64,000 nucleotides of DNA from Kiritimatiellia bacterium (GTDB taxonomy: Bacteria > Verrucomicrobiota > Kiritimatiellia > UBA8416 > JABMPJ01): positions 11,974-75,973 of the forward strand of contig JASLOA010000007.1 in the NCBI GenBank assembly GCA_030745755.1. Reading direction: 5' to 3'. The notes under the pieces were generated by a model. That model saw only the letters and a list, made by a program, of their open reading frames with translations, was not told where the DNA came from and did not search any database. Positions 27,362 to 54,303 of this stretch are shown one piece after another. A program made the translations under genes and the position numbers. The first letter of the stretch is position 1. Each line of letters opens with the position of its first letter.

Positions 27362-28840
27362 TCACATATCCGCCGGGCTCTGAACCGAGAGCCCCGGCTT
27401 GTTCAGCACATGCGTGTAAATCATTGTCGTGGACACATCCGCATGCCCCAACAACTCCTGCACCGTACGGATATCGTAGTTTGCCATCAGCAGGTGCGTC
27501 GCAAACGAGTGGCGCAAGGCATGGCAGTTAACCTTCTTGGTAATGTCCGCCGCATCAGCCGCCTTCTTGATCGAGCGCTGCAAGTTACTCTCGTGGATGT
27601 GGTGCCGGCGTTCCACGCCACCTCGGGGATCGATCGAGAGCTTAACGGAAGGGAACACGTACTGCCAACGCCACTCCAGCCCGCCCTTGGGGTACTTCCG
27701 AGCCAGCGCATCCGGCAGAAACACCGGTCCCACACCAGCCTTCCGGTCCGCCGCAAACAGCTTACGCACACTCCCCATATGCTCCTTCAGAGGCGCAGCG
27801 TACTTCTTCGGGAGCATCGTCATCCGGTCCTTCTTGCCCTTTCCGGTCCGTACTATGAGCTGCTCGCTGTCGAAATCAACATCCTGCACGCGAAGACGGA
27901 TACACTCCATGAGGCGTAGCCCCGACCCATAGAGCAACCCCGCCATGACATAGGGTTCTCCGGCGAGATGGGCGAAGAGGCGGTCAATCTCCCCATGCGT
28001 CAACACCACCGGCAACAGCTTCGGCCGTTTCGATCGCTGAAAGTCATTCAAATCCCCAAGGGCCTTGCCGACAACAACCTTGTAGAACAGCACCAGTGCA
28101 CAGAGCGCCTGGTTCTGCGTGGACGCACCCACGTTACGTTTGTTCGCCAGGTAGGTGAGATACTCCACGATCTCCGGTTCCGCCAGGCTGCGAGGATCCC
28201 GGTACGCATGAAACGTCAAGAAACGCGTAACCCATGTCTCATAGCTGTGCTCCGTACGAATCGAATAGTTGCGACGCCGGATTTCCTCCCTCAACGTACC
28301 CAAATCCTGGCCAAACAGGTCACGGGCCTTCATGCCATCCAGCGTATCCCGAAACACCTGCTTCGCCGCATCGGCATGCAGAGCCACCGATGCATGGGCG
28401 TAGTGTTCGATCTCCGATGCAAAATGGAGGTGAGGCGACTTCCAGTCCTCCCATGGGAAGTCCTTTGCCCACGGGGTTTTGACCACCGTCACAAACAGAA
28501 TGCGCAACGCATCGACAAACTGGCTGAACTGCCAGTCCTCGAGCCGCCCGGCAGCCACCTGCTTGGACAGATAGCCCTTAATGTCCTCTGCCGTTTTATG
28601 CCCCAGTCGGACCCGCTTTGTACTTTCGATGAAATAAACCACCCGCTTCCGAGCCCACGCCACCGCCTGTGGGTTCATCCCATCCGCAGCCAGTTGACTC
28701 TCGTAGATCTCCGACGCTATCAATGCTTGGTGGCAGGAAACCGAGCCAACCGGAACGGTTGGCTCTCTTGTCGCCTCGCGTCTCGGTGAATCCTCACCGG
28801 AGAAACGATGGCTTGTTCGTGTCTTCCTGAAGAAACTCAA
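27362..28840 (-). CDS. intI: integron integrase (IntI) with long N-terminal extension
   Basis: Tyrosine recombinase boxes ALRHSFATHLL and GHADVSTTMIYTHV. The IntI-specific additional domain ALARKYPKGGLEWRWQYVFPS is present. Extended similarity to IntI1 from LREEIRRRNYSIRTEHSYETWV onward. TTG start at 28840; first in-frame ATG gives a start at 28678. Confidence 0.9.
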   Translation of the reverse strand: MSFFRKTRTSHRFSGEDSPRREATREPTVPVGSVSCHQALIASEIYESQLAADGMNPQAVAWARKRVVYFIESTKRVRLGHKTAEDIKGYLSKQVAAGRLEDWQFSQFVDALRILFVTVVKTPWAKDFPWEDWKSPHLHFASEIEHYAHASVALHADAAKQVFRDTLDGMKARDLFGQDLGTLREEIRRRNYSIRTEHSYETWVTRFLTFHAYRDPRSLAEPEIVEYLTYLANKRNVGASTQNQALCALVLFYKVVVGKALGDLNDFQRSKRPKLLPVVLTHGEIDRLFAHLAGEPYVMAGLLYGSGLRLMECIRLRVQDVDFDSEQLIVRTGKGKKDRMTMLPKKYAAPLKEHMGSVRKLFAADRKAGVGPVFLPDALARKYPKGGLEWRWQYVFPSVKLSIDPRGGVERRHHIHESNLQRSIKKAADAADITKKVNCHALRHSFATHLLMANYDIRTVQELLGHADVSTTMIYTHVLNKPGLSVQSPADM

Positions 28841-29003
28841 GACTTACGAAAAGACAGGGGTAAGTCTTGGCGTCATGACCAATCCCGAGAGTAGACAGAG
28901 GTGGGGAACCAAACCCATAGAGATCGGCTAACAACACCTTGCACACCTACAAAATGGGCCGCGCGGACGCGTCCCATGTTGAGGGTGAAGGCGGGCGTTG
29001 GCC
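28841..29003 (+). other. attI region (putative crossover G|TTGGCC at 28997/28998)
   Basis: Lies between the intI start and the first cassette. Contains GGCTAAC (28926) and GTTGGCC (28997) core-like sites and a GGACGCGTCC palindrome. Exact architecture is unresolved. Confidence 0.5.
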
Positions 29004-29018
29004 CGGAGAACAATAGCC

Positions 29019-29048
29019 TTGCGCAGTCTTTACGGTATGACGTATTAT
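29019..29048 (+). promoter_or_regulatory. cassette promoter TTGCGC-18-TATTAT upstream of the first mazEF-like cassette
   Basis: Hexamers at 29019-29024 and 29043-29048. RBS GGAGGTG at 29055, ATG at 29066. Confidence 0.45.
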
Positions 29049-29065
29049 CATACTGGAGGTGATAA

Positions 29066-29308
29066 ATGAGCACAGCGAAAATCGCAATCACAATGGAAGA
29101 GAGTCTGGTCTCACAGGTGGACCGACTTGTCTCGTCACACATCTACCCCAGCCGCAGTCGAGCCATTCAAGAAGCAGTGGCCGACAAGCTACACCGCTTG
29201 GATCGTCGCCGCTTGGCGCGCGAATGCGCCAAGCTCGACCCACAGTTTGAACAAGCGATGTCGGAAGAGGGAATGGGTTTGGAGGTAGAGGCATGGCCAG
29301 AGTACTGA
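29066..29308 (+). CDS. CopG/RHH-type antitoxin (MazE/PemI-like)
   Basis: 80 aa. N-terminal ribbon-helix-helix region [18 protein letters not shown]. Overlaps the toxin gene. Confidence 0.7.
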
Positions 29309-29655
29309 GGGGAGATATCTTCTGGGCTGACCTCAATCCAACCAGGGGACATGAGCAAGCGGGGCTGCGCCCAGTGCTCATTCTCAGCGAAGATGTATTT
29401 AACAACCGTTCTGGGACGGTCATAGCCATTGCTCTGACAAGTCAACCGCAGCGTGCGGGCTTCCCGCTGACACTTGAACTGTCGAGTCCAAGACTCCCCA
29501 AACGCTCATGGGCAAAGATCAGCCAGGTCCGCACGTTGTCGGTCCAGCGTCTCGGGAAGAAGATTGGGAAAGCGTCCTCTGATGAACTCGACCACATCAT
29601 TGAAGGACTCAATGAGCTGATCGGGGGCCAACAAAGCCCTCGACCATACCGTTGA
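29293..29655 (+). CDS. mazF: MazF/PemK-family endoribonuclease toxin
   Basis: [27 protein letters not shown]... is the typical MazF/PemK N-terminus. Confidence 0.8.
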
Positions 29656-29704
29656 CAGCCGCTCAGAAGCGGCTGTCAACGTCTGGTCAGGGCACGCGTT
29701 GTGC
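29651..29704 (+). other. attC-like / terminator hairpin region (unresolved) ending G|TTGTGC
   Basis: Perfect 12-bp stem GTTGACAGCCGC-tcagaa-GCGGCTGTCAAC, then CAGGGCAC-gcgtt-GTGCCTG. Core sites are present (TGTCAAC, GTTGTGC) but the canonical R''/L''/L'/R' layout is unclear. Confidence 0.35.
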
Positions 29705-29717
29705 CTGAGATAATGAG

Positions 29718-29996
29718 ATGAACAGACAATCCAATCAGGAATTCATCGTAGCTGGAGTAGCTGGCGTCACCGGCATATTCATTTTGGCTATGTCGTGGTC
29801 TGAGTTCAAGACAGTGGCAGAGGATCACCCCACCATCAGTGTCTTCACTTTGGGCCTGACTCTCCTCTTTATGGGGGCAGCGAATCTTTCAACAGGACTC
29901 AAGAGGCGGCTTTGGCTTAAACAGATGAAGACACTGGGGAGCACAACAACCGAATCCACCTTATCACCTGAAGGCGCGCCTTCAGATGAAAGGTGA
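29718..29996 (+). CDS. small membrane protein (2 TM), hypothetical
   Basis: 92 aa with two hydrophobic helices. Confidence 0.45.
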   Translation: MNRQSNQEFIVAGVAGVTGIFILAMSWSEFKTVAEDHPTISVFTLGLTLLFMGAANLSTGLKRRLWLKQMKTLGSTTTESTLSPEGAPSDER

Positions 29997-30010
29997 TTCC
30001 CACGTTAGCC
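29941..30010 (+). other. attC site (R'' GCACAAC ... R' GTTAGCC)
   Basis: Internal palindromes ATCACC/GGTGAT and TGAAGGCGCGCCTTCA. Overlaps the end of the upstream ORF. Confidence 0.5.
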
Positions 30011-30021
30011 ATACGAGGAAG

Positions 30022-30819
30022 ATGAAGAACTGTTTGAAGGCATGCCTCACTTGGTTGATGAACCGCCGGCCGCGGTTCTATCTCGGTGCTTACGTCGTCG
30101 TCATCCTTGCATTTGCACTCGCGTTCAGCCTTCTTAAGCGTCAGTTCTACCACCCGTATTTCAGGCACGAGGCGTCCTTCCAAGAAGCCACATGCGAACT
30201 CAGAGACAAGTTGACCCCTGCGTTTCAGCACGCTCTTTCTGAGCGCGCCGAAATGCTTCGCGACAAGAAGGTCTACCCAGAGAAGACATGGTTGCGCGAC
30301 TTCCGTGTCGGTGAAGACGCCGTCCACTTCTCAATCCTAGTCGAGATCAGGGAGAGCGATGAGGGTTTCGGGAAACGTCGCTGGATTCCGTGCCGGCTGA
30401 CTCCGGATTTTGCCTTCGATTACAGATACAAGGAGCTCACGGCTGACCATGTCATTCACCTCTCCCCGGAACTTGATTTTGTCCGGAACCCTTCGGATTC
30501 CGGCCCGTGGAGCAGATCCGAGCTGGACCCGATCCTTCGCCTTATGTTGAACCGGATTGAGGTTGACGGAAGAACGGTAGCGGAAATGCAATCACTCTTT
30601 GCTGCCGACAAAGGCATCCCTTCCGGCATTCGGGGTAGTTTCCCCCGAATGCTTTACCTCAGTGTTGTCACGATTACTACGCTTGGCTATGGCGACATCA
30701 TCCCTGTTGGCAATTGGGCACGATTCTTGGTCGGTTGTGAATCTGTTCTTGGTGTGATCCTGCTCGGATTCTTTGTTAGCAGTGTCTGGTCAAGGAGCCG
30801 AAAGAAGGAAAATGGCTAA
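30022..30819 (+). CDS. K+-channel-like pore protein (TTLGYGD selectivity-filter motif)
   Basis: N-terminal TM, a ~150-aa domain, then a pore helix, the filter VVTITTLGYGDIIP and a final TM (ARFLVGCESVLGVILLGFFV). Confidence 0.6.
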   Translation: MKNCLKACLTWLMNRRPRFYLGAYVVVILAFALAFSLLKRQFYHPYFRHEASFQEATCELRDKLTPAFQHALSERAEMLRDKKVYPEKTWLRDFRVGEDAVHFSILVEIRESDEGFGKRRWIPCRLTPDFAFDYRYKELTADHVIHLSPELDFVRNPSDSGPWSRSELDPILRLMLNRIEVDGRTVAEMQSLFAADKGIPSGIRGSFPRMLYLSVVTITTLGYGDIIPVGNWARFLVGCESVLGVILLGFFVSSVWSRSRKKENG

Positions 30820-30877
30820 CCAGAGCCTGGAGGATATCGTCGCTAACCGCGCCGAATCCTCAGGCTGATCGTTGGAA
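30814..30877 (+). other. attC site (R'' GGCTAAC ... R' GTTGGAA)
   Basis: L boxes CAGAGCCTGGAGG / CCTCAGGCTG, with an extrahelical base. Confidence 0.6.
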
Positions 30878-30888
30878 CTGAGAGAAGA

Positions 30889-31113
30889 ATGGAAACACCA
30901 AATCAGATTGCACACGGTCTCGGCGCGTTCCTGATTGCTATTCTCGTCACCGGCTTTGTGGCAAACGTCTTCGTGACTAACATTCCCGCACATGCCGAAC
31001 GGTTCGCCACCGGAGGCATTGGTCTCGGTGTGTTTGTCATCGTGTGGTGGATTTCATACGCCATCAGCATCCGGGCAGCCAGAAGGCGCAGCCGATCGAA
31101 GTCAGCGGAATGA
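30889..31113 (+). CDS. small membrane protein (2 TM), hypothetical
   Basis: 74 aa, two TM helices, basic C-terminus. Confidence 0.4.
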   Translation: METPNQIAHGLGAFLIAILVTGFVANVFVTNIPAHAERFATGGIGLGVFVIVWWISYAISIRAARRRSRSKSAE

Positions 31114-31122
31114 ACACAGGAG

Positions 31123-31197
31123 TTCCAACATCATGCTGCTCACGTATTTCCAATAGCCGCAAGCGGCCATTGGAAAACGGAGAGCCAAGCGTTGGGT
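31123..31197 (+). other. attC site, family B (R'' TTCCAAC ... R' GTTGGGT)
   Basis: gctGctc/gagagc L boxes with an extrahelical G. Central hairpin ttccaatagccgc-aag-cggccattggaa. Confidence 0.7.
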
Positions 31198-31207
31198 TTG
31201 AAGAGGA

Positions 31208-31579
31208 ATGGAAACGCAGACAGAAGTGAAACCTGAATCAGTCAGGCGAGCGTTCCGCGCAGCAACGCTGATCAGGCGTAGTGGGGTGCCTGTTGCCGTA
31301 GTCACACTCCTCCTTGCCGCCATTGGTTTTGCCGTCCATGCTGCCCTTGGGATGCTCGTCATTGTCATCTGTCTGCTCTGCATGGTCTGTGTCTTTGTGG
31401 TTCTTTCAGTGCAAGCCAAATGCCCGCAGTGCAAGACTAGATGGTGGGACAACACCTTCGTTGCAGCCACAACGGGCAGACGCCTTCGCGCGGCAATCGA
31501 CCCTGACTGCACGGGGAACGAGACAGTGGAATTGAAGTGCCGTCACTGTCGTCTGGAAATTGCACCGTACTTGAAATGA
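31208..31579 (+). CDS. membrane protein with C-terminal zinc ribbon (CPQC...CRHC), hypothetical
   Basis: 123 aa, two TM helices, then CxxC...CxxC. Confidence 0.45.
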   Translation: METQTEVKPESVRRAFRAATLIRRSGVPVAVVTLLLAAIGFAVHAALGMLVIVICLLCMVCVFVVLSVQAKCPQCKTRWWDNTFVAATTGRRLRAAIDPDCTGNETVELKCRHCRLEIAPYLK

Positions 31580-37353: not shown

Positions 37354-37415
37354 ATCTAACAAGAGGCTGCTCGCGTACCCTCGTATACTCGGGCCGGAGA
37401 GCCTGATCGTTGGGC
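37354..37415 (+). other. attC site (R'' ATCTAAC ... R' GTTGGGC)
   Basis: ggctGctc/gagagcc L boxes with an extrahelical G. Bounds an ORF-less ~210-bp cassette (37198-37408). Confidence 0.55.
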
Positions 37416-37439
37416 TTGAGAGAAAGGATTTGCAAATCT

Positions 37440-39092
37440 ATGCCTGGAGATATCATGCTGCTGTTGTTTGCACTGACTGTTATAGTGTGCCACTCGCAGG
37501 AAGCGGGAGCGGCAACGATTTCCGTGAAGAACTTTGGCGTAGCAGGCGATGGCACAAGTGACGACGGGCCAGCCATCCGTAAAGCGGTTGAGGCCGCGAC
37601 CAAAGGCGGCCCAGGAACAAAGCTTGTTTTCGAGAGCAAGGCCTACCGCCTTGGAGCAAACAAGGGCGGCAATGGCCAGATCAGGCTGGTCGATGTAGAC
37701 GGCCTGACCATCGACGGGAACGGCTCGACCCTACTCCTGCATCCTCAGAACGGGATGTTTGACGTCCTCAAGTGCCGGAACGTCGTCATCCGCGGATTTA
37801 CGATCGACTTCGATCCACTGCCGTTCACACAGGGCACAATCAGCAGCGTAGATGCAGGCAAAGGCTTCTTCGATCTGGAGTTCCACAAGGGATATCCCCT
37901 CCCTTTGCCGGATGAAGCAGTGAAGAAACGCTTGGGCAAAGGCGGCTGGCGCTGGGGATCGGTCATCGACCCGAAGGAACGCCATCGCCGCTGGGGAATT
38001 GCAGACCACTACTCTATCGACTCGATCAATTTGGTTGCGGGCAGAACCTATCGCATCACGGTTGCGCCCTCGGATGCCAAACAACTCACTCCTGTCCGTC
38101 CCGGTGATAGATTCTTCCTGCCATTACAGCTTACCGAGAAAGGTGAACGCGCCTTCGGCTCAAACATCACGGTCAAGGAGTCGACAGACTGCACGATTGA
38201 GGATATCACGATCTACAGCGCACGTTGCGGCATGAACTACGCTATCACCCGCAATGAAGGCCTCATCACGCTGCGTAACAACAAGATCACCTTCAAGCCG
38301 GGCAGCACCCGTATCTGTACGACCTGGAAGGACGGCATGCACGTCAAAGATAACCGCGTTGGGCCGCTAATCGAGGGGTGCTATTTCGAAGGCATGCTGG
38401 ACGATAGCATCAACATCAGCGCTAATACAGCCATGGCGACTAAGATCATCTCACCGACAGAGTTTCAACTAATGGGTCCAGCGTTCTCTGCGGGTGACGA
38501 TGTGATGGTCTTCGAACCGAAGACCGGTAAGATACGGATGACGATGGTCGTCAAAGCGACGGCGCAAGGTAGAGACCACCTCGTAACGTTGGCCGATCCA
38601 ATGGAGGGCGTGATTACAGGGCGCAAACAACGCGAGCACGTAAAGTCCACCCACTTCTACAATATGAGCTACGTCAACAACGGCTTTATCGTTCGCAATT
38701 GCACGTTCAAACCCCAACGCCGACATGCACTACTGGTCCGTTGCAGCAACGGGCTGTTTGAAGGAAATACGGTTGATGGCGTCGGCGGAGCTGCCGTGTG
38801 GATGGGCAATGAGATGGGCAGCTTCTACGAAGGACCGTTCCCCACGAACAATATAGTCCGCAATAACACCATCAACAACACACAATTGCCTGCTATCAAA
38901 ATCTACACCCGTGCAGGCGGCAAAGCGAAGCTCACACGCAACATCAAGGTTGAGGACAATACAATCACAGTGCTTCCTGAGAAGCTGGGCATCTCGGTTC
39001 TCAATGCTGCATCCGTCGAGTGTAGGGGCAACCGCATTCTTGATCAACAGGGGACGGATATTGGGGCAGCAGGCGTGATTCTTAATGATTGA
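37440..39092 (+). CDS. secreted right-handed beta-helix protein (pectate-lyase superfamily / GH28-like)
   Basis: Signal peptide MPGDIMLLLFALTVIVCHS. ISVKNFGVAGDGTSDDGPAIRKAVEAA is typical of GH28 / Pectate_lyase_3. Repetitive N-x-I/V beta-helix coils. Confidence 0.7.
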   Translation: MPGDIMLLLFALTVIVCHSQEAGAATISVKNFGVAGDGTSDDGPAIRKAVEAATKGGPGTKLVFESKAYRLGANKGGNGQIRLVDVDGLTIDGNGSTLLLHPQNGMFDVLKCRNVVIRGFTIDFDPLPFTQGTISSVDAGKGFFDLEFHKGYPLPLPDEAVKKRLGKGGWRWGSVIDPKERHRRWGIADHYSIDSINLVAGRTYRITVAPSDAKQLTPVRPGDRFFLPLQLTEKGERAFGSNITVKESTDCTIEDITIYSARCGMNYAITRNEGLITLRNNKITFKPGSTRICTTWKDGMHVKDNRVGPLIEGCYFEGMLDDSINISANTAMATKIISPTEFQLMGPAFSAGDDVMVFEPKTGKIRMTMVVKATAQGRDHLVTLADPMEGVITGRKQREHVKSTHFYNMSYVNNGFIVRNCTFKPQRRHALLVRCSNGLFEGNTVDGVGGAAVWMGNEMGSFYEGPFPTNNIVRNNTINNTQLPAIKIYTRAGGKAKLTRNIKVEDNTITVLPEKLGISVLNAASVECRGNRILDQQGTDIGAAGVILND

Positions 39093-39205: not shown

Positions 39206-39388
39206 ATGAAATCTAAAGATATAGGATTCTTTGCCATGGGAGTGGGGGCACTGGGGATTATCATTCCAATTCTAGTCCTCATTGGAGATAGTTCAAAAAT
39301 TATTCAAATCGGGATTATGATCTCAGGATCGATCATATTCGGATGTGGTTGCATTGCCGCAGTTATCGCACAGAACAAGGAACAATAA
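39206..39388 (+). CDS. small membrane protein (60 aa), hypothetical
   Basis: RBS GGAAAGGAG. Two TM helices. Confidence 0.45.
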   Translation: MKSKDIGFFAMGVGALGIIIPILVLIGDSSKIIQIGIMISGSIIFGCGCIAAVIAQNKEQ

Positions 39389-39450
39389 CTGCTATCAAAG
39401 CATTGGAGTTTACGTCGCTATAGCGCCGAAACTCAAGGTGGACGTTAGAA
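39383..39450 (+). other. attC site, family K (R'' CAATAAC ... R' GTTAGAA)
   Basis: tggagttt/aaactcaa stem. Central cgctatagcg palindrome. Confidence 0.6.
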
Positions 39451-39458
39451 TCAAGAAA

Positions 39459-40880
39459 ATGAGTACGAAGCAGAAGAACATCCTATTGATTATTTGCGAT
39501 CAACTATCTGCCCAGGCATTGGCTGCTTGGGGTAGTCCGTATGGTAGCACCCCTAATATTGATAGAATTATCGGAAACGGTGTTCGCTTTGAAACGGCGT
39601 ATACGAACTGTCCCTTATGCCAACCTGCCCGAGCATCACTTTGGACTGGTCTATATCCGCACCAGACAGGAGTATTGTCTAATGGTCGTTTACATCCTGT
39701 TCCTGAGGTCCCGGATTCGGTTGCAACGCTAGGGTCAGTCTTTTCTAAGGCCGGATATAGGACGGTTCATTTTGGGAAGCAACATGATGCCGGGAGCCTT
39801 CGCGGATTTGAGCGGTTTCCAATTGAAGGGAAGGAAATAGAAGATGTAGCTCCGTCATGGCCTGTGAACTACGACACGCGACAGGATCGCAATACCCGCG
39901 AGCAAATGATAGACTTCTTGAGTAGCTATGCTGACCCACGACCTTATCTGGCCGTCGCAGACCTCAATAATCCACATGACATTTGCAGCTGGATTGGGGA
40001 ATTCCAAGGCAGGAAAGAACTGATAAGTCCGGATTGTGCTCTCCCGCCACTGCCTGACAATCTATATCGTGACGAAGGGCAGTTCGAGAAGCTGCCCTTG
40101 CCGATTCAGTACATTTGTTGTGCTCATAACCGCCAAGCCCAAATGGCCGAATGGGATGAGACGAGAATCCGTCACTACTTGTGTGCATATCATCATTACA
40201 TAAGCAGAGTGGATACTGAGATAGGCAAGATTCTGGCAACTCTGGAAGGTAGAAGTGATGCCGAAGACACCTTGATTGTGTTCACGGCTGACCATGGTGA
40301 CTCAATGTGTGGTAGATGGATGGGTACAAAGCACACGAGCTTCTATGATGAAACCACCAAAATTCCTCTAGTATTCGCAGGTCCCGGAATCGAAGGAGAA
40401 AAGGGACGCGCTATCAGCGGCTTAACGTCTCTCATCGATCTATTTCCCACACTTTGTGACTATGCCGGCATAGACATTCCCTCTACGGTTGCCGGCCGCT
40501 CCCTAATGCCTTGGGTGGTCGATCACAAGGAGAAGCCGCCTCGTACATATGTAGTCAGCCAATGGCATACAGAATGGGGATTCACTATCGAACCAGGAAG
40601 AATGATTCGAACGAACAGATACAAATATACGCATTACCTCGAAGGTAATGGCGAAGAACTGTATGACCTTATCGATGACCCCGGAGAATTGAAAACCCTT
40701 GTAGATCATCGTGGGTTCCACAAAGTATTGAAAGAACATCGTGCTATCCTGAAAGAACATACAGAAATAGCAAATGACCCCTATTTCTCTCTTGAATGGA
40801 ATGCGGATGAACGCTGGAGGTGCCATAAGCCAGGATATCGCAATCATCGTGGTGCTGCGGCGCCGGCAAGCGGCAATTGA
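39459..40880 (+). CDS. type I sulfatase (formylglycine-dependent)
   Basis: NILLIICDQL..., FGly motif CQPARASLWTG (C-x-P-x-R), and a C-terminal sulfatase domain. Confidence 0.85.
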   Translation: MSTKQKNILLIICDQLSAQALAAWGSPYGSTPNIDRIIGNGVRFETAYTNCPLCQPARASLWTGLYPHQTGVLSNGRLHPVPEVPDSVATLGSVFSKAGYRTVHFGKQHDAGSLRGFERFPIEGKEIEDVAPSWPVNYDTRQDRNTREQMIDFLSSYADPRPYLAVADLNNPHDICSWIGEFQGRKELISPDCALPPLPDNLYRDEGQFEKLPLPIQYICCAHNRQAQMAEWDETRIRHYLCAYHHYISRVDTEIGKILATLEGRSDAEDTLIVFTADHGDSMCGRWMGTKHTSFYDETTKIPLVFAGPGIEGEKGRAISGLTSLIDLFPTLCDYAGIDIPSTVAGRSLMPWVVDHKEKPPRTYVVSQWHTEWGFTIEPGRMIRTNRYKYTHYLEGNGEELYDLIDDPGELKTLVDHRGFHKVLKEHRAILKEHTEIANDPYFSLEWNADERWRCHKPGYRNHRGAAAPASGN

Positions 40881-42131: not shown

Positions 42132-42195
42132 GATCGCTGACAAGGTGTTGGATGCTACGACGCTATAGCGCCGAGCATCATCACGGACGTTGGGC
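42117..42195 (+). other. attC site, family K (R'' GCGCAAC ... R' GTTGGGC)
   Basis: gatgct/agcatc stem. cgacgctatagcgccg core, as in 39383-39450. Confidence 0.55.
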
Positions 42196-42211
42196 TGTAA
42201 AAGGATATAGA

Positions 42212-43927
42212 ATGCAAGGCATGTTCAAGATTCTGCTATTATCTCTCACACTCCCATTATTCATCAATTCGCATTCACGGGCAGAGGGTTCGGAAGCGAT
42301 ACAATTGGGACCAGACTACAAGCCGTGCGGCGAGTTGACTAAATTCTGGCGTGGCAAACCTGTCATCGGGCGCTGGATGGGCCAGGGATTTCTGGCTGAT
42401 GCGCCCACCTTCTACAACCAATCTTCTTTTCCCTACAAGAAGCGAGGTCACAAACAAGAAGTCAAGATGGCGGACTTCCTGAGCACGCCTCGGCTCCTCG
42501 GCGGCTGGCATCCCGACAAAGGCGGCAAAGGCGAACTCGAAAAACACAAGCACGTCGCCGACGCTGACCTCGTGTATCGAAAAAAGGATGGCTCCCTCGG
42601 GTATCGCTGGGAACTGCTGGACCTGCGTCTGAGTCGATTCATCAATGCGGGATACACCGACCTGACGCTGGTGCTGGATCAAATCCCCTATTGCCTAGCC
42701 AGGAAGCATCATTTGGAAACCTACGGCCAAGCCATCCCACCCGATGATCTGAAAGAGTGGTACGTCTTCATCCGTGATCTCTGCAAAGAATTGAAACGCC
42801 GCTACAGCACGAAGACTGCCAGCGGCTTCCGCTTCCGCCTCGGCACCGAACTCGGCAGCGGCGAACGCATCGCCCTGACGCAGGAACAACTGCACGAGAT
42901 GTACGCCCTCACACACAAGGCCATCAAGGAAGTCCTGCCCGACGCCAAGCTCGGCCCGTGGAACGAAGCGGGTTTCAAAGATAAGCAGGAACGCGCTCCG
43001 CTGAAAGTGCTGGCACTGGCCAAATATGCCAAGGCGAACAAGCTGGCCTTTGATTTCGCTAGCGTCTCGTCCTACTCCATCCCGAAAGTACGCGGCAGCA
43101 GAATCCTCGCGACCAACCCCCAGCAGAAGGCCGAGGGCGATGCCAAGTATTTCACCTTGCTCCGCGAAGTCTTCCCCGGTATCCCGGCCGAGTATCACGA
43201 GTTCGGCATTCTCAACTCGCAATACGGCGTCGTCACCAGTGAACCCGGTTCGCGCGGCGGTGCGTATCGGGCGCATTACCTGCTAGCCGCGCTTGAAAAC
43301 AGGTCTCTCGACCGCTTGTATCACTGGTCAGTCTTTGACTTCATCGGCACCGACAGAAAGCTCGGCCCGATCCAGTTGCTCCGCTCCAATGGCTGGCTCT
43401 ATTCCATCCTGGAGCATGCTGCCGAAGGCAAGCTGTATGTCCTGAAGGGCAATACCGCGGCAGGGAACACTCTCTACAAATCCGCTCTCATTACCTGCCC
43501 CAAGAGGAGCTTCCTGATCGTCTCGGCGTATACGCTGGATCGCCGCAAGCAAGGCAAGCCAACGATCACGATCACCCTTCCCCAAAGCATCGTCCAAAAC
43601 AAGCCGCCGGGTAAAGGTGTAGTTGAGTATGTGGCATTGACGCCGGAGACGGACATCTACCGAACCGTCAAAGCGGACCTCGCGAAGGCAAGCAACCTCA
43701 ATCCCGAATTCGCCAAGCATCCTGATCTCGTCGCCCCGGTGAAGAGCATGGCGACCAAGTTCGCTGGTGCGCGCAAAATGATCACGGCCAACTACTCGGC
43801 CTACCAAAACCAGATGGAGAAGTCTCTCACCCTCAAGCCTTTCGGGCCCAAGATGAAGACGGACGAGATGACGCTATCCCTAACCTTCCCCTTCCCGACG
43901 GATTCGGTGGTTGTTTTTGTCTGGTGA
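42212..43927 (+). CDS. secreted TIM-barrel glycoside-hydrolase-like protein (GH39/GH30-like), hypothetical
   Basis: Signal peptide MQGMFKILLLSLTLPLFINSHS. LGPWNEAGF resembles the GH39 WNEP acid/base motif. 571 aa. Confidence 0.5.
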   Translation: MQGMFKILLLSLTLPLFINSHSRAEGSEAIQLGPDYKPCGELTKFWRGKPVIGRWMGQGFLADAPTFYNQSSFPYKKRGHKQEVKMADFLSTPRLLGGWHPDKGGKGELEKHKHVADADLVYRKKDGSLGYRWELLDLRLSRFINAGYTDLTLVLDQIPYCLARKHHLETYGQAIPPDDLKEWYVFIRDLCKELKRRYSTKTASGFRFRLGTELGSGERIALTQEQLHEMYALTHKAIKEVLPDAKLGPWNEAGFKDKQERAPLKVLALAKYAKANKLAFDFASVSSYSIPKVRGSRILATNPQQKAEGDAKYFTLLREVFPGIPAEYHEFGILNSQYGVVTSEPGSRGGAYRAHYLLAALENRSLDRLYHWSVFDFIGTDRKLGPIQLLRSNGWLYSILEHAAEGKLYVLKGNTAAGNTLYKSALITCPKRSFLIVSAYTLDRRKQGKPTITITLPQSIVQNKPPGKGVVEYVALTPETDIYRTVKADLAKASNLNPEFAKHPDLVAPVKSMATKFAGARKMITANYSAYQNQMEKSLTLKPFGPKMKTDEMTLSLTFPFPTDSVVVFVW

Positions 43928-44031: not shown

Positions 44032-45456
44032 ATGAGTAAGCCAAACATTGTCTACGTAATTGCTGACCAATTGCGCCGGCAATCTTGCGGATATGCCGGT
44101 GATGCGCTGGCAAGGACTCCGAATATTGATCGGTTAGCGGATGAGGGTATGAGTTTTGATAACGCAGTGGTATCGATGCCCGTTTGCAGTGCCTATCGCG
44201 CTTCGCTGTTCACGGGGAAGTATACGACGTCGACAGGCATGGTCATCAACGAGATACGACTAAATCCGGATCACCACCCGCGTTGCCTGGCGCATTGCCT
44301 GGCCGACGCAGACTACGAGCTTGCATATCTCGGCAAGTGGCATCTTTGGGCGAACCAGCTGGGGAATCACGAGGATCCCAAGAACTCGTTCGTGCCACGC
44401 GGTCCACACCGGCTGGGTTTTGACGGCTACTGGGCGGCTTATAATTTCCATCACGACTACTATGGTGAACATGCGTATTACCATGAAGAGAAACCGGAGA
44501 AGATACGCTTCCCGGAAGGGACGTACGAGCCGGACGGCCAGACAGATATGGCGATCGATTACATAAAGGCTCACGTCAATGACGACAGGCCGTTTGCTCT
44601 CATGCTGTCGCTTGGAACGCCGCATGACCCATGGGTGAAGGACAATGTACCTAAGGAATACTACGCCATGTTCGAGAATGTGAAGTTTGAAGTTCCACCG
44701 AACTGGCGACAGGAAAGCGACGCACCTTACGGCGATGGCTGGTCAGACATGGAGAAGACGCCAGAGATGCTGGACGAGTGGATGCGCGTGTACTATGCGA
44801 TGACTGCGAATCTGGACTGGAACATCGGCCGACTGCAGAGCGCAATCCGCGACGCAGGCATTGAGGATAACACGATCCTTGTCTTCACCTCGGACCACGG
44901 TGAATGCTTCGGCGCGCATGGGAGGATGAAGAAGAACATTTTCTATGAAGAAGCTGCGCGTGTACCCATGCTCATCAAGTGGCCTGCCGCGATCCCTGCG
45001 GGGCACAAGAGCGATGCCTGTCTCAGTAATGTCGACATCATGCCAACGCTATTGGGATTGGTCGGGGCGGATATCCCCGACGAGGTCGAAGGTATGGACC
45101 TGAGCCATTGCGCACGAGGCGAATCGGGCCCGGAACCGGAATTTGCATTTCTCCAGAATACCGGTGCGTGTGCGGCCTGGGAAGACGGTCATGAATGGCG
45201 AGCGATCCGAACGAAGCAATACACCTACGCCGTCTACAAGCTCGATGGTAAAGAACTGCTCTTCGACAATATCGCCGACCCCTATCAGATGGTTAACCTG
45301 TTGGACCAGGACGTTACCGACCTCGGACCTGAACTGAGCCGGAAGCTGGCGGCCAAGATGGCAGAACTGAAAGACGGTTTCGAAGTATCTTCATTCTACC
45401 GAGATAGCTGGGTGTCCAAGGATCGCCTGATCTTGAGGACTGCAAAGAATTCCTGA
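44032..45456 (+). CDS. type I sulfatase
   Basis: NIVYVIADQLR..., FGly motif CSAYRASLFTG, FTSDHGE, and a C-terminal domain. Confidence 0.85.
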   Translation: MSKPNIVYVIADQLRRQSCGYAGDALARTPNIDRLADEGMSFDNAVVSMPVCSAYRASLFTGKYTTSTGMVINEIRLNPDHHPRCLAHCLADADYELAYLGKWHLWANQLGNHEDPKNSFVPRGPHRLGFDGYWAAYNFHHDYYGEHAYYHEEKPEKIRFPEGTYEPDGQTDMAIDYIKAHVNDDRPFALMLSLGTPHDPWVKDNVPKEYYAMFENVKFEVPPNWRQESDAPYGDGWSDMEKTPEMLDEWMRVYYAMTANLDWNIGRLQSAIRDAGIEDNTILVFTSDHGECFGAHGRMKKNIFYEEAARVPMLIKWPAAIPAGHKSDACLSNVDIMPTLLGLVGADIPDEVEGMDLSHCARGESGPEPEFAFLQNTGACAAWEDGHEWRAIRTKQYTYAVYKLDGKELLFDNIADPYQMVNLLDQDVTDLGPELSRKLAAKMAELKDGFEVSSFYRDSWVSKDRLILRTAKNS

Positions 45457-53217: not shown

Positions 53218-54303
53218 TACGGCAAGTATGAACATCAACATTTGGCAAATTTGGAGTATCGGGATGCTGAAAAGGACGATGCGTATTCGTCGGTCCAGTG
53301 CGTAGAGGCGGCTTGCCGCTTTGTCGAGCGCAACCATGCTGAGGACAACTGGCATCTTCATTTGGAGCTGTTTGACCCTCATGAACCGTTTGATTGCCCT
53401 CAGGCATACCTCGATGCATACGATGATCAGTGGGACGGCCCACCCACCACCTGTCCCGATTATGCGCCTTTGGATAGAGACAGGGACACGCCCAAGGCCG
53501 TTGACCATCTACGCAGGGCCTACGCCGCTACGATAACAATGAACGATCGTAAGTTGGGGCAGCTTTTCGATATGATGGACCGGTTCAGCATGTGGGACGA
53601 TACAGCCGTGATTCTGACTACAGATCATGGCTATCTTCTTGGTGAACATGGTCTCTGGGCGAAGAACTATATGCAGTGTTATGACGAACTCGTGCACCTT
53701 CCCTTGATTGTCCGCTATCCCGGGGCAACCCCGGGCCGACGGCAGGCGTTGACCGGCGCCATTGACATCATGCCAACGATTCTGGAAATGCACGGGGCAC
53801 GGGATATCCCCGAATCTGTCATGGGGAAGAGCATCGTCCCTCTTCTCAAAGAGGATGGCCATCATCATGACGGACTTCTTTTCGGATACTTTGGCCGGGA
53901 AGTCAACATGACCGATGGTGTGCATACCTATCACCGCATGCCAACGCCGAATTCCACGTGTGATTTCCACTTCACAGATCTCAACATGGTAGACCCGTGC
54001 AGCGTCCTGAAAGCGGAATTGGGCACACACCTCAAACACAGTAACGGGATACCTCACTTTCGCATCACACGCCAGTCGGTTCTCCCTCAGGGCTGCGATG
54101 GCCACCACTTGATCTATAGTCTTGAGAATGATCCCAACCACAATAGGGCAGTTCACGACGACAAACTCGAGAGCGAGTTGACCAAGAAACTTAGGATGTT
54201 GTTACAAGAGGCAGATGCGCCAGAGTGCCAATATAGAAGACTCGCAATTGAGCAATCTGCCGAACAAAGCGTTGCACAGCGACGCGGTAAACCGCGCGCG
54301 TGA
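53218..54303 (+). pseudogene. sulfatase C-terminal fragment (no start codon; frame open through the attC)
   Basis: TTDHGYLLGEHGLWAK... and a C-terminal sulfatase domain. Lacks the N-terminal FGly region. Ends inside a family-C attC. Confidence 0.7.

Follow-up and report, generated by a model that had tools for sequence, protein, structure and literature searches.

The channel cassette and its integron

The channel gene lies at positions 30022-30819 on the forward strand of the window, that is, of the whole 64,000-nucleotide stretch of DNA that was analysed. According to the list of open reading frames and the sequence itself, it runs from an ATG at 30022 to a TAA ending at 30819 and encodes 265 amino acids; the product is 100% identical to NCBI entry MDP6629529.1, a "potassium channel family protein" from a Kiritimatiellia MAG. 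An alternative start, the ATG at 29986 (277 aa), was rejected: it falls within the attC site of the preceding cassette (29941-30010), and 30022 is thus the sensible choice.

The integron integrase gene, intI (27362-28840, reverse strand), diverges from the cassette array and was identified by TIGR02249 (431 bits, cut-off 265) and by the Pfam families Phage_integrase and SAM_4. Its longest ORF is 492 aa with a TTG start (the database call is 438 aa), and about 170 residues precede the integron-integrase profile match, which starts at residue 182. Two covariance models, R1 and R2, were built from attC sites of the same array, and the window was scanned with both, filters off. The array so delimited extends over 28926-61812 on the forward strand and holds at least 40 attC sites and at least 39 cassettes, all on the forward strand.

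The channel cassette (30005-30871, forward strand) measures 867 bp and contains one ORF. Its 5' boundary falls at the G|TT of the R' box GTTAGCC (30004-30010) of the preceding cassette's attC (29941-30010, forward strand; model R1, 45.9 bits, E 1e-10), and its own attC lies at 30814-30877 (forward strand; model R1, 30.5 bits, E 3e-6); both sites are outside the training set. The R'' box of its own attC, GGCTAAC (30814-30820), overlaps the stop codon, and the R' box is GTTGGAA. R'' complements the GTTAGCC of the 5' boundary at 7 of 7 positions, as expected of a former circular cassette. An attC on both sides, this complementarity and a co-oriented array beside intI confirm what a first-pass annotation had proposed, namely that the channel is cassette-encoded: it is a single-gene integron cassette in a sedentary chromosomal array. 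A three-ORF cassette (29699-31190), suggested by the 69-nt gap after the gene, is ruled out by the flanking attC sites.

The channel is the third cassette, behind a MazF-type toxin-antitoxin pair and a 92-aa membrane ORF. With the ATG only 17 nt from the cassette boundary, there is no space for a promoter of its own, and a sigma-70 scan of 28300-31300 found no promoter-like site, although the consensus may not apply to this phylum. Expression of such a promoterless cassette would rely on transcription from upstream. One explanation is therefore that the gene is stored silent cargo, intact in its sedentary array and with no present role in the host. The missing promoter is in line with this, and so is the lack of a selection signal within the population: the window matches contig JASMKX010000012.1 of the Kiritimatiellia MAG GCA_030749005.1, the same cassette arrangement is present with identical DNA in several other assemblies, and the channel copies from other MAGs and metagenomes are 100% identical in DNA, so that selection is not readable from them. 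The position of the gene argues in the other direction, however, as cassettes close to intI are usually transcribed from the array promoter; moreover, the same position is kept in several samples, and the ORF is intact with all family-conserved pore residues retained. We consider silent storage distinctly unlikely.

Several features of the array were recorded alongside. An attC-like site at 28926-29003 (61 bits, in the training set) immediately follows the region upstream of intI and is not preceded by any ORF; it represents either a first cassette that lacks an ORF or a remnant close to attI. Both cassettes adjoining that of the channel (29718-29996 and 30889-31113) carry ORFs of 92 and 74 aa that resemble two-TM membrane proteins; neither protein gave a family match above threshold, and neither is found beside the channel in Vibrio arrays. 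Toxin-antitoxin cassettes are abundant, first an RHH plus PemK/MazF pair (29066-29655), then RelB/YafQ, ParE, RelE/MqsA-like and PIN types (also at locus L112, 8343-10798), a richness typical of sedentary chromosomal integrons. Large cassettes at 39345-40880, 44032-45456, 53242-54303, 42152-43927 and 37410-39092 carry genes for sulfatases, of which two are full-length and one is truncated, as well as for a GH39-like glycoside hydrolase and a beta-helix protein. The carriage of polysaccharide-degradation enzymes in the channel's array fits the sulfated-glycan lifestyle usually ascribed to Kiritimatiellia. A two-gene cassette at 57882-60130 joins a PfkB-family sugar kinase to an ADP-ribosylglycohydrolase; the two ORFs overlap by 4 nt and share one attC (60086-60145).

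A potassium-channel pore and a linker domain

The protein has only two hydrophobic segments: in 19-residue windows, mean hydropathy exceeds 1.6 at residues 17-43 and 232-257 only, and its maximum across residues 39-205 is 0.48. A single TM segment near the N-terminus is therefore followed by about 167 aa of soluble sequence, which leads on to the pore and the inner helix. The cytoplasmic N-terminus (residues 1-16; 30022-30069, all features of the gene being on the forward strand), assigned from AF2 secondary structure and a charge count, is predicted by AF2 to form an amphipathic helix at residues 2-13. It is followed by TM1, the outer helix M1 (residues 17-38; 30070-30135), in which Y24, F31 and A32 are family-conserved, and by a predicted periplasmic alpha+beta domain between M1 and the turret (residues 39-205; 30136-30636). 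The pore helix (residues 206-218) and the filter TTLGYGD (residues 219-225), together at 30637-30696, were assigned by sequence, KcsA alignment and family conservation, and lead into the inner helix M2 (residues 229-255; 30706-30786), which contains R234, E240 and the hinge glycine G244. Beyond M2 there is a basic tail of 10 residues and no cytoplasmic domain. The first-pass annotation had likewise placed the sole other TM segment at the N-terminus, apart from the pore, with a domain of about 150 aa in between; by hydropathy the separation is about 165 aa.

That annotation also held that this domain must be extracytoplasmic, and we reach the same view. The M1-P linker is extracellular in every K+ channel, and the charges of the protein obey the positive-inside rule, both termini being basic (five basic and no acidic residues in residues 1-18, four and one in the C-terminal tail). 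From this established topology and charge distribution we infer that in a Gram-negative host the linker domain must be periplasmic. Disulfides would be a weak sign of the same location: a cysteine pair is apparently conserved, as judged by eye, in some marine gammaproteobacterial members, and 69 of the 121 ectodomains contain no cysteine.

The motif VVTITTLGYGDIIP, found in the channel protein, includes the filter (30676-30696 at the nucleotide level), a T-x-G-Y/F-G-D sequence that follows a pore helix and reads TTLGYGD where KcsA has TTVGYGD. Pfam Ion_trans_2 matches above its cut-off of 22.5 bits, with a score of 47.1 bits and E 2.3e-12; of the 79 profile positions the match covers 23-73, corresponding to pore helix, filter and inner helix, with M1 outside the match. 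By phmmer, residues 194-262 align to KcsA residues 49-119 (E 3e-8), ungapped to residue 254; KcsA residues 61-80 align ungapped to the pore helix and filter region. The counterparts so paired are W232/W87, R234/R89, G244/G99 and G249/G104, and the turret G-x-P is matched as well. Across 121 relatives the filter and the residues equivalent to R89, G99 and G104 are invariant or nearly so. A canonical selectivity filter followed by an inner helix, as first noted from the DNA, is thus borne out, and these alignments support the assignment of the protein as a K+-channel-type pore. The channel differs from KcsA at two pore positions, with a family-invariant glutamate in M2 (E240) at the position of KcsA V95 and a valine at that of KcsA E71. 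A glutamate at the V95 position is not known from characterised K+ channels and counts against reading the protein as a KcsA-type channel.

AF2 was given an alignment of 121 sequences and predicted a single chain (pLDDT 91.2, pTM 0.84). The monomer has a short N-terminal helix (2-13), TM1 (17-37), a pore helix (206-219) and a long inner helix (231-264). A P-loop is present between its outer and inner TM helices, as in K+ channel pores; this was the feature on which the first-pass annotation had staked its reading.

Alternatively, TM1 might be a signal peptide that is cleaved off, or the protein might serve as a sensor or anchor that does not conduct and keeps a pore-like remnant. The N-terminal hydrophobic segment does contain an A-L-A motif (residues 32-34), and M1 is undetected by Pfam. 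The hydrophobic stretch, however, is longer than 20 residues and runs beyond ALA, and the family conservation of Y24, F31 and A32 also speaks against cleavage; a filter, hinge glycine and R89 equivalent that are all invariant or nearly so point to a functional pore rather than a remnant. Both versions of this explanation appear highly improbable to us, and we treat the protein below as a two-TM channel subunit with a domain in its linker.

In the AF2 model this ectodomain comprises a long helix (51-74), strands within 82-147, a helix (168-176), a strand (179-182) and a last helix (183-196); predicted alone, it reaches a pLDDT of 88. It opens with a near-invariant F-Y-H-x5-E right after TM1 and closes with the G-x-P turret motif. 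Across the family its length is 154-208 residues, and the sequence is variable apart from FYHxxxxxE and G-x-P. Pfam holds no family for it. A profile search of PDB sequences with the ectodomain gave no relative (best E 1.8), Foldseek gave nothing significant (best E 0.27), and structural comparison found no match to PAS, Cache or PDC folds. BPI/TULIP-type wrap domains (SPLUNC1, latherin, Der f 7, Mdm12 and the bacterial YceB) resemble it with low scores and 5-15% identity; NTF2-like and Aha1 folds score nearly as high, and the likeness is one of fold class only. On these predicted structures the ectodomain would belong to the broad class in which a helix packs on a curved sheet, and we would not assign it to any family described so far.

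A widespread family in mixed genomic contexts

An exhaustive profile search of 1.84 billion representatives returned 958 clusters (50% identity) at E<=1e-30. The topology, which the first-pass annotation called unusual, is so when set against characterised channels, but it is not rare. Each of the 150 matches listed runs uninterrupted across most of the profile, and almost all of these proteins measure 225-350 aa, most of them 250-320 aa. Their labels are generic ("potassium channel family protein"), and some homologues are named "two pore domain potassium channel family protein" at NCBI. That name is contradicted by the single filter per protein: K2P channels have two pore domains per polypeptide, and here there are one filter and two TM helices. 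With one genome taken per species, about 40 of the 80 loci with the pore motif have TM1, filter and M2 in this same order, with about 200 aa between TM1 and the filter; these loci are from Psychrobacter, Desulforapulum, Oceanirhabdus, many Clostridium and Anaerocolumna, Acidobacteriota, Actinomycetota and Flavobacteriales. The groups covered are thus Clostridia, Gammaproteobacteria, Desulfobacterota, Acidobacteriota, Actinomycetota and Flavobacteriales.

Distant members, about 27-30% identical to the query, are encoded by cassettes of Vibrio superintegrons, WP_268854087.1 among them. In V. diabolicus, VCR-type attC sites lie on both sides of the family gene; an identical protein occurs across Vibrio assemblies in three distinct cassette neighbourhoods, its stop codon within R'', and its 90% cluster also includes entries from V. 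alginolyticus, V. parahaemolyticus and V. vulnificus. Cassettes in Kiritimatiellia and distant members in Vibrio indicate that integrons recruited the family at least twice, so that the first-pass description of ion channels as rare integron cargo is misleading for this family. No integrase was found within 6 kb of the homologues at any of the 80 genome loci, a distance that is uninformative for long arrays. Plasmid matches reached only the pore region of other channel types.

All-against-all BLASTP of the neighbours at 35 loci revealed no conserved partner, the only recurrence being synteny within Clostridium, which suggests that the channel protein acts alone. The neighbours themselves are mixed. 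The closest relative (49% identity) sits among methylamine-metabolism genes, the Psychrobacter member has housekeeping neighbours, and the Clostridium copies are syntenic between species, which is what vertical inheritance of a chromosomal gene would give. Some family loci border TIR, restriction-modification or prophage genes and many border housekeeping genes; among the 133 ORFs that neighbour 24 loci, tRNA synthetases and purine biosynthesis are represented and each defence family accounts for 1-3.

Such contexts bear on the suggestion, made with the first annotation, that the channel is an effector of abortive infection or stress response. In its most explicit form, the protein would be a one-protein anti-phage system acting by abortive infection or superinfection exclusion: the domain would sense an envelope attack or a phage component, the pore would open and the membrane potential would collapse. 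Integron carriage in two unrelated lineages is compatible with such a role, as recent work reports that integron cassettes encode phage defence systems and that cassettes and prophages are rich in such genes. The Pseudoalteromonas rubra member lies inside a Mu-like prophage and is also listed as viral by IMG/VR, and another member adjoins a large serine recombinase. At a further locus (L089, 6957-11445), two TIR-domain proteins and a nucleoside 2-deoxyribosyltransferase-related protein stand downstream of the family member, a neighbourhood that looks like a defence island. Moreover, a 436-aa metagenomic protein (P0006) carries an N-terminal CPBP/"Abi"-type intramembrane protease domain (PF02517) fused to a whole channel, and HalA, which serves the Hailong anti-phage system as its ion-channel effector, is itself a K-channel-like tetramer.

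HalA differs from the channel, however, in that oligodeoxyadenylate gates it by binding to a cytoplasmic domain, and in that it requires HalB, whereas the channel has neither a cytoplasmic domain nor a partner gene. No family of PADLOC-DB 2.0 matches the channel protein at E<=1, none of the 50,697 phage records searched matches the family, which leaves no cultured phage with the gene, and IMG/VR holds only three full-length ones. The heterogeneous neighbours, with so few of any one defence family, and the apparently vertical inheritance in Clostridium count against the anti-phage explanation too. In addition, a strictly K+-selective pore would shift the potential only to E_K, a weaker effect than that of the non-selective pores of known effectors. 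The proposed effector role thus found no direct support, and we think a dedicated anti-phage system rather unlikely; as to a role in phage defence more generally, the data neither support nor exclude it.

Proposed function and possible external control of the pore

The reading that we prefer, and consider probable, takes the gene product as one of four identical subunits of a K+-selective, KcsA-type 2TM channel with a periplasmic linker domain of about 165 residues. Its elements, namely tetramerisation, K+ selectivity, gating by the ectodomain and a physiological role, are what we infer from the features described above. Since each chain has a single pore domain, four chains should assemble, and placing the monomer model in such a tetramer would seat four periplasmic domains above the outer pore mouth. 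As the cytoplasmic parts amount to a 16-residue N-terminus and a 10-residue tail, any regulation beyond that by lipids, voltage or ions would come from the periplasmic domain, either because it binds a ligand or a component of the envelope, or because it shapes the route by which ions leave, in the manner of the K2P cap. Once open, the channel would allow K+ to follow its electrochemical gradient and would bring the membrane potential closer to E_K; conditions would decide whether the result is electrophoretic K+ uptake or a partial depolarisation.

Known prokaryotic K+ channels are, to our knowledge, regulated by cytoplasmic modules (RCK, CNBD or Kir domains) or by voltage. A 2005 survey of microbial K+ channels describes additions to 2TM cores that are cytoplasmic only (PMC2234077). 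Compared with KcsA, the channel has about 145 extra residues, which are predicted to fold into a periplasmic domain linking M1 to the turret, and lacks the C-terminal cytoplasmic helix bundle. In KirBac and Kir channels, regulation comes from a large C-terminal domain in the cytoplasm; the channel has no such domain, and the Kir turret is short. The likeness is greater with K2P channels such as TWIK-1 and TRAAK, in which, as in the channel, the M1-P linker is enlarged into a structure above the outer pore mouth; we know of no other well-known K+ channels in which this is so. Their cap is a helical hairpin of about 55 residues. K2P channels are dimers with two pore domains per chain, whereas the channel has one pore domain per chain and an alpha+beta insert of about 165 residues. 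The K2P cap would nevertheless be the closest structural analogy for a domain over the pore mouth, and in TWIK-1 it is termed an "expansive extracellular cap" (PMC5002071).

The sequence is already public under a generic name. Literature searches for integron-borne or extracellular-domain K+ channels, which did not cover all journals, found no description of the architecture and no experiment on any family member. If the preferred reading holds, the family would be a bacterial counterpart to the K2P cap, and a channel of about 265 aa would offer a simple, small system for the external control of a K+ pore. A further-reaching proposal can be made: these proteins may form a class of externally gated K+ channels whose sole regulatory module is a periplasmic domain of undescribed fold, and integrons and prophages may have taken them up again and again for the protection they give against a danger at the envelope, such as phage adsorption, phage injection or a toxin acting on membranes. 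We put this forward as speculation that is unlikely to hold as a whole. The repeated finding of the channel on mobile cassettes, in Kiritimatiellia as well as in Vibrio, suggests a portable, self-sufficient trait, and for this reason one that can be tested by expression of the single gene.

A minor observation concerns the end of an array in one Vibrio genome (locus L109, 4775-4830), where the channel cassette is the last: its attC ends after about 25 nt, and the DNA beyond is unrelated.
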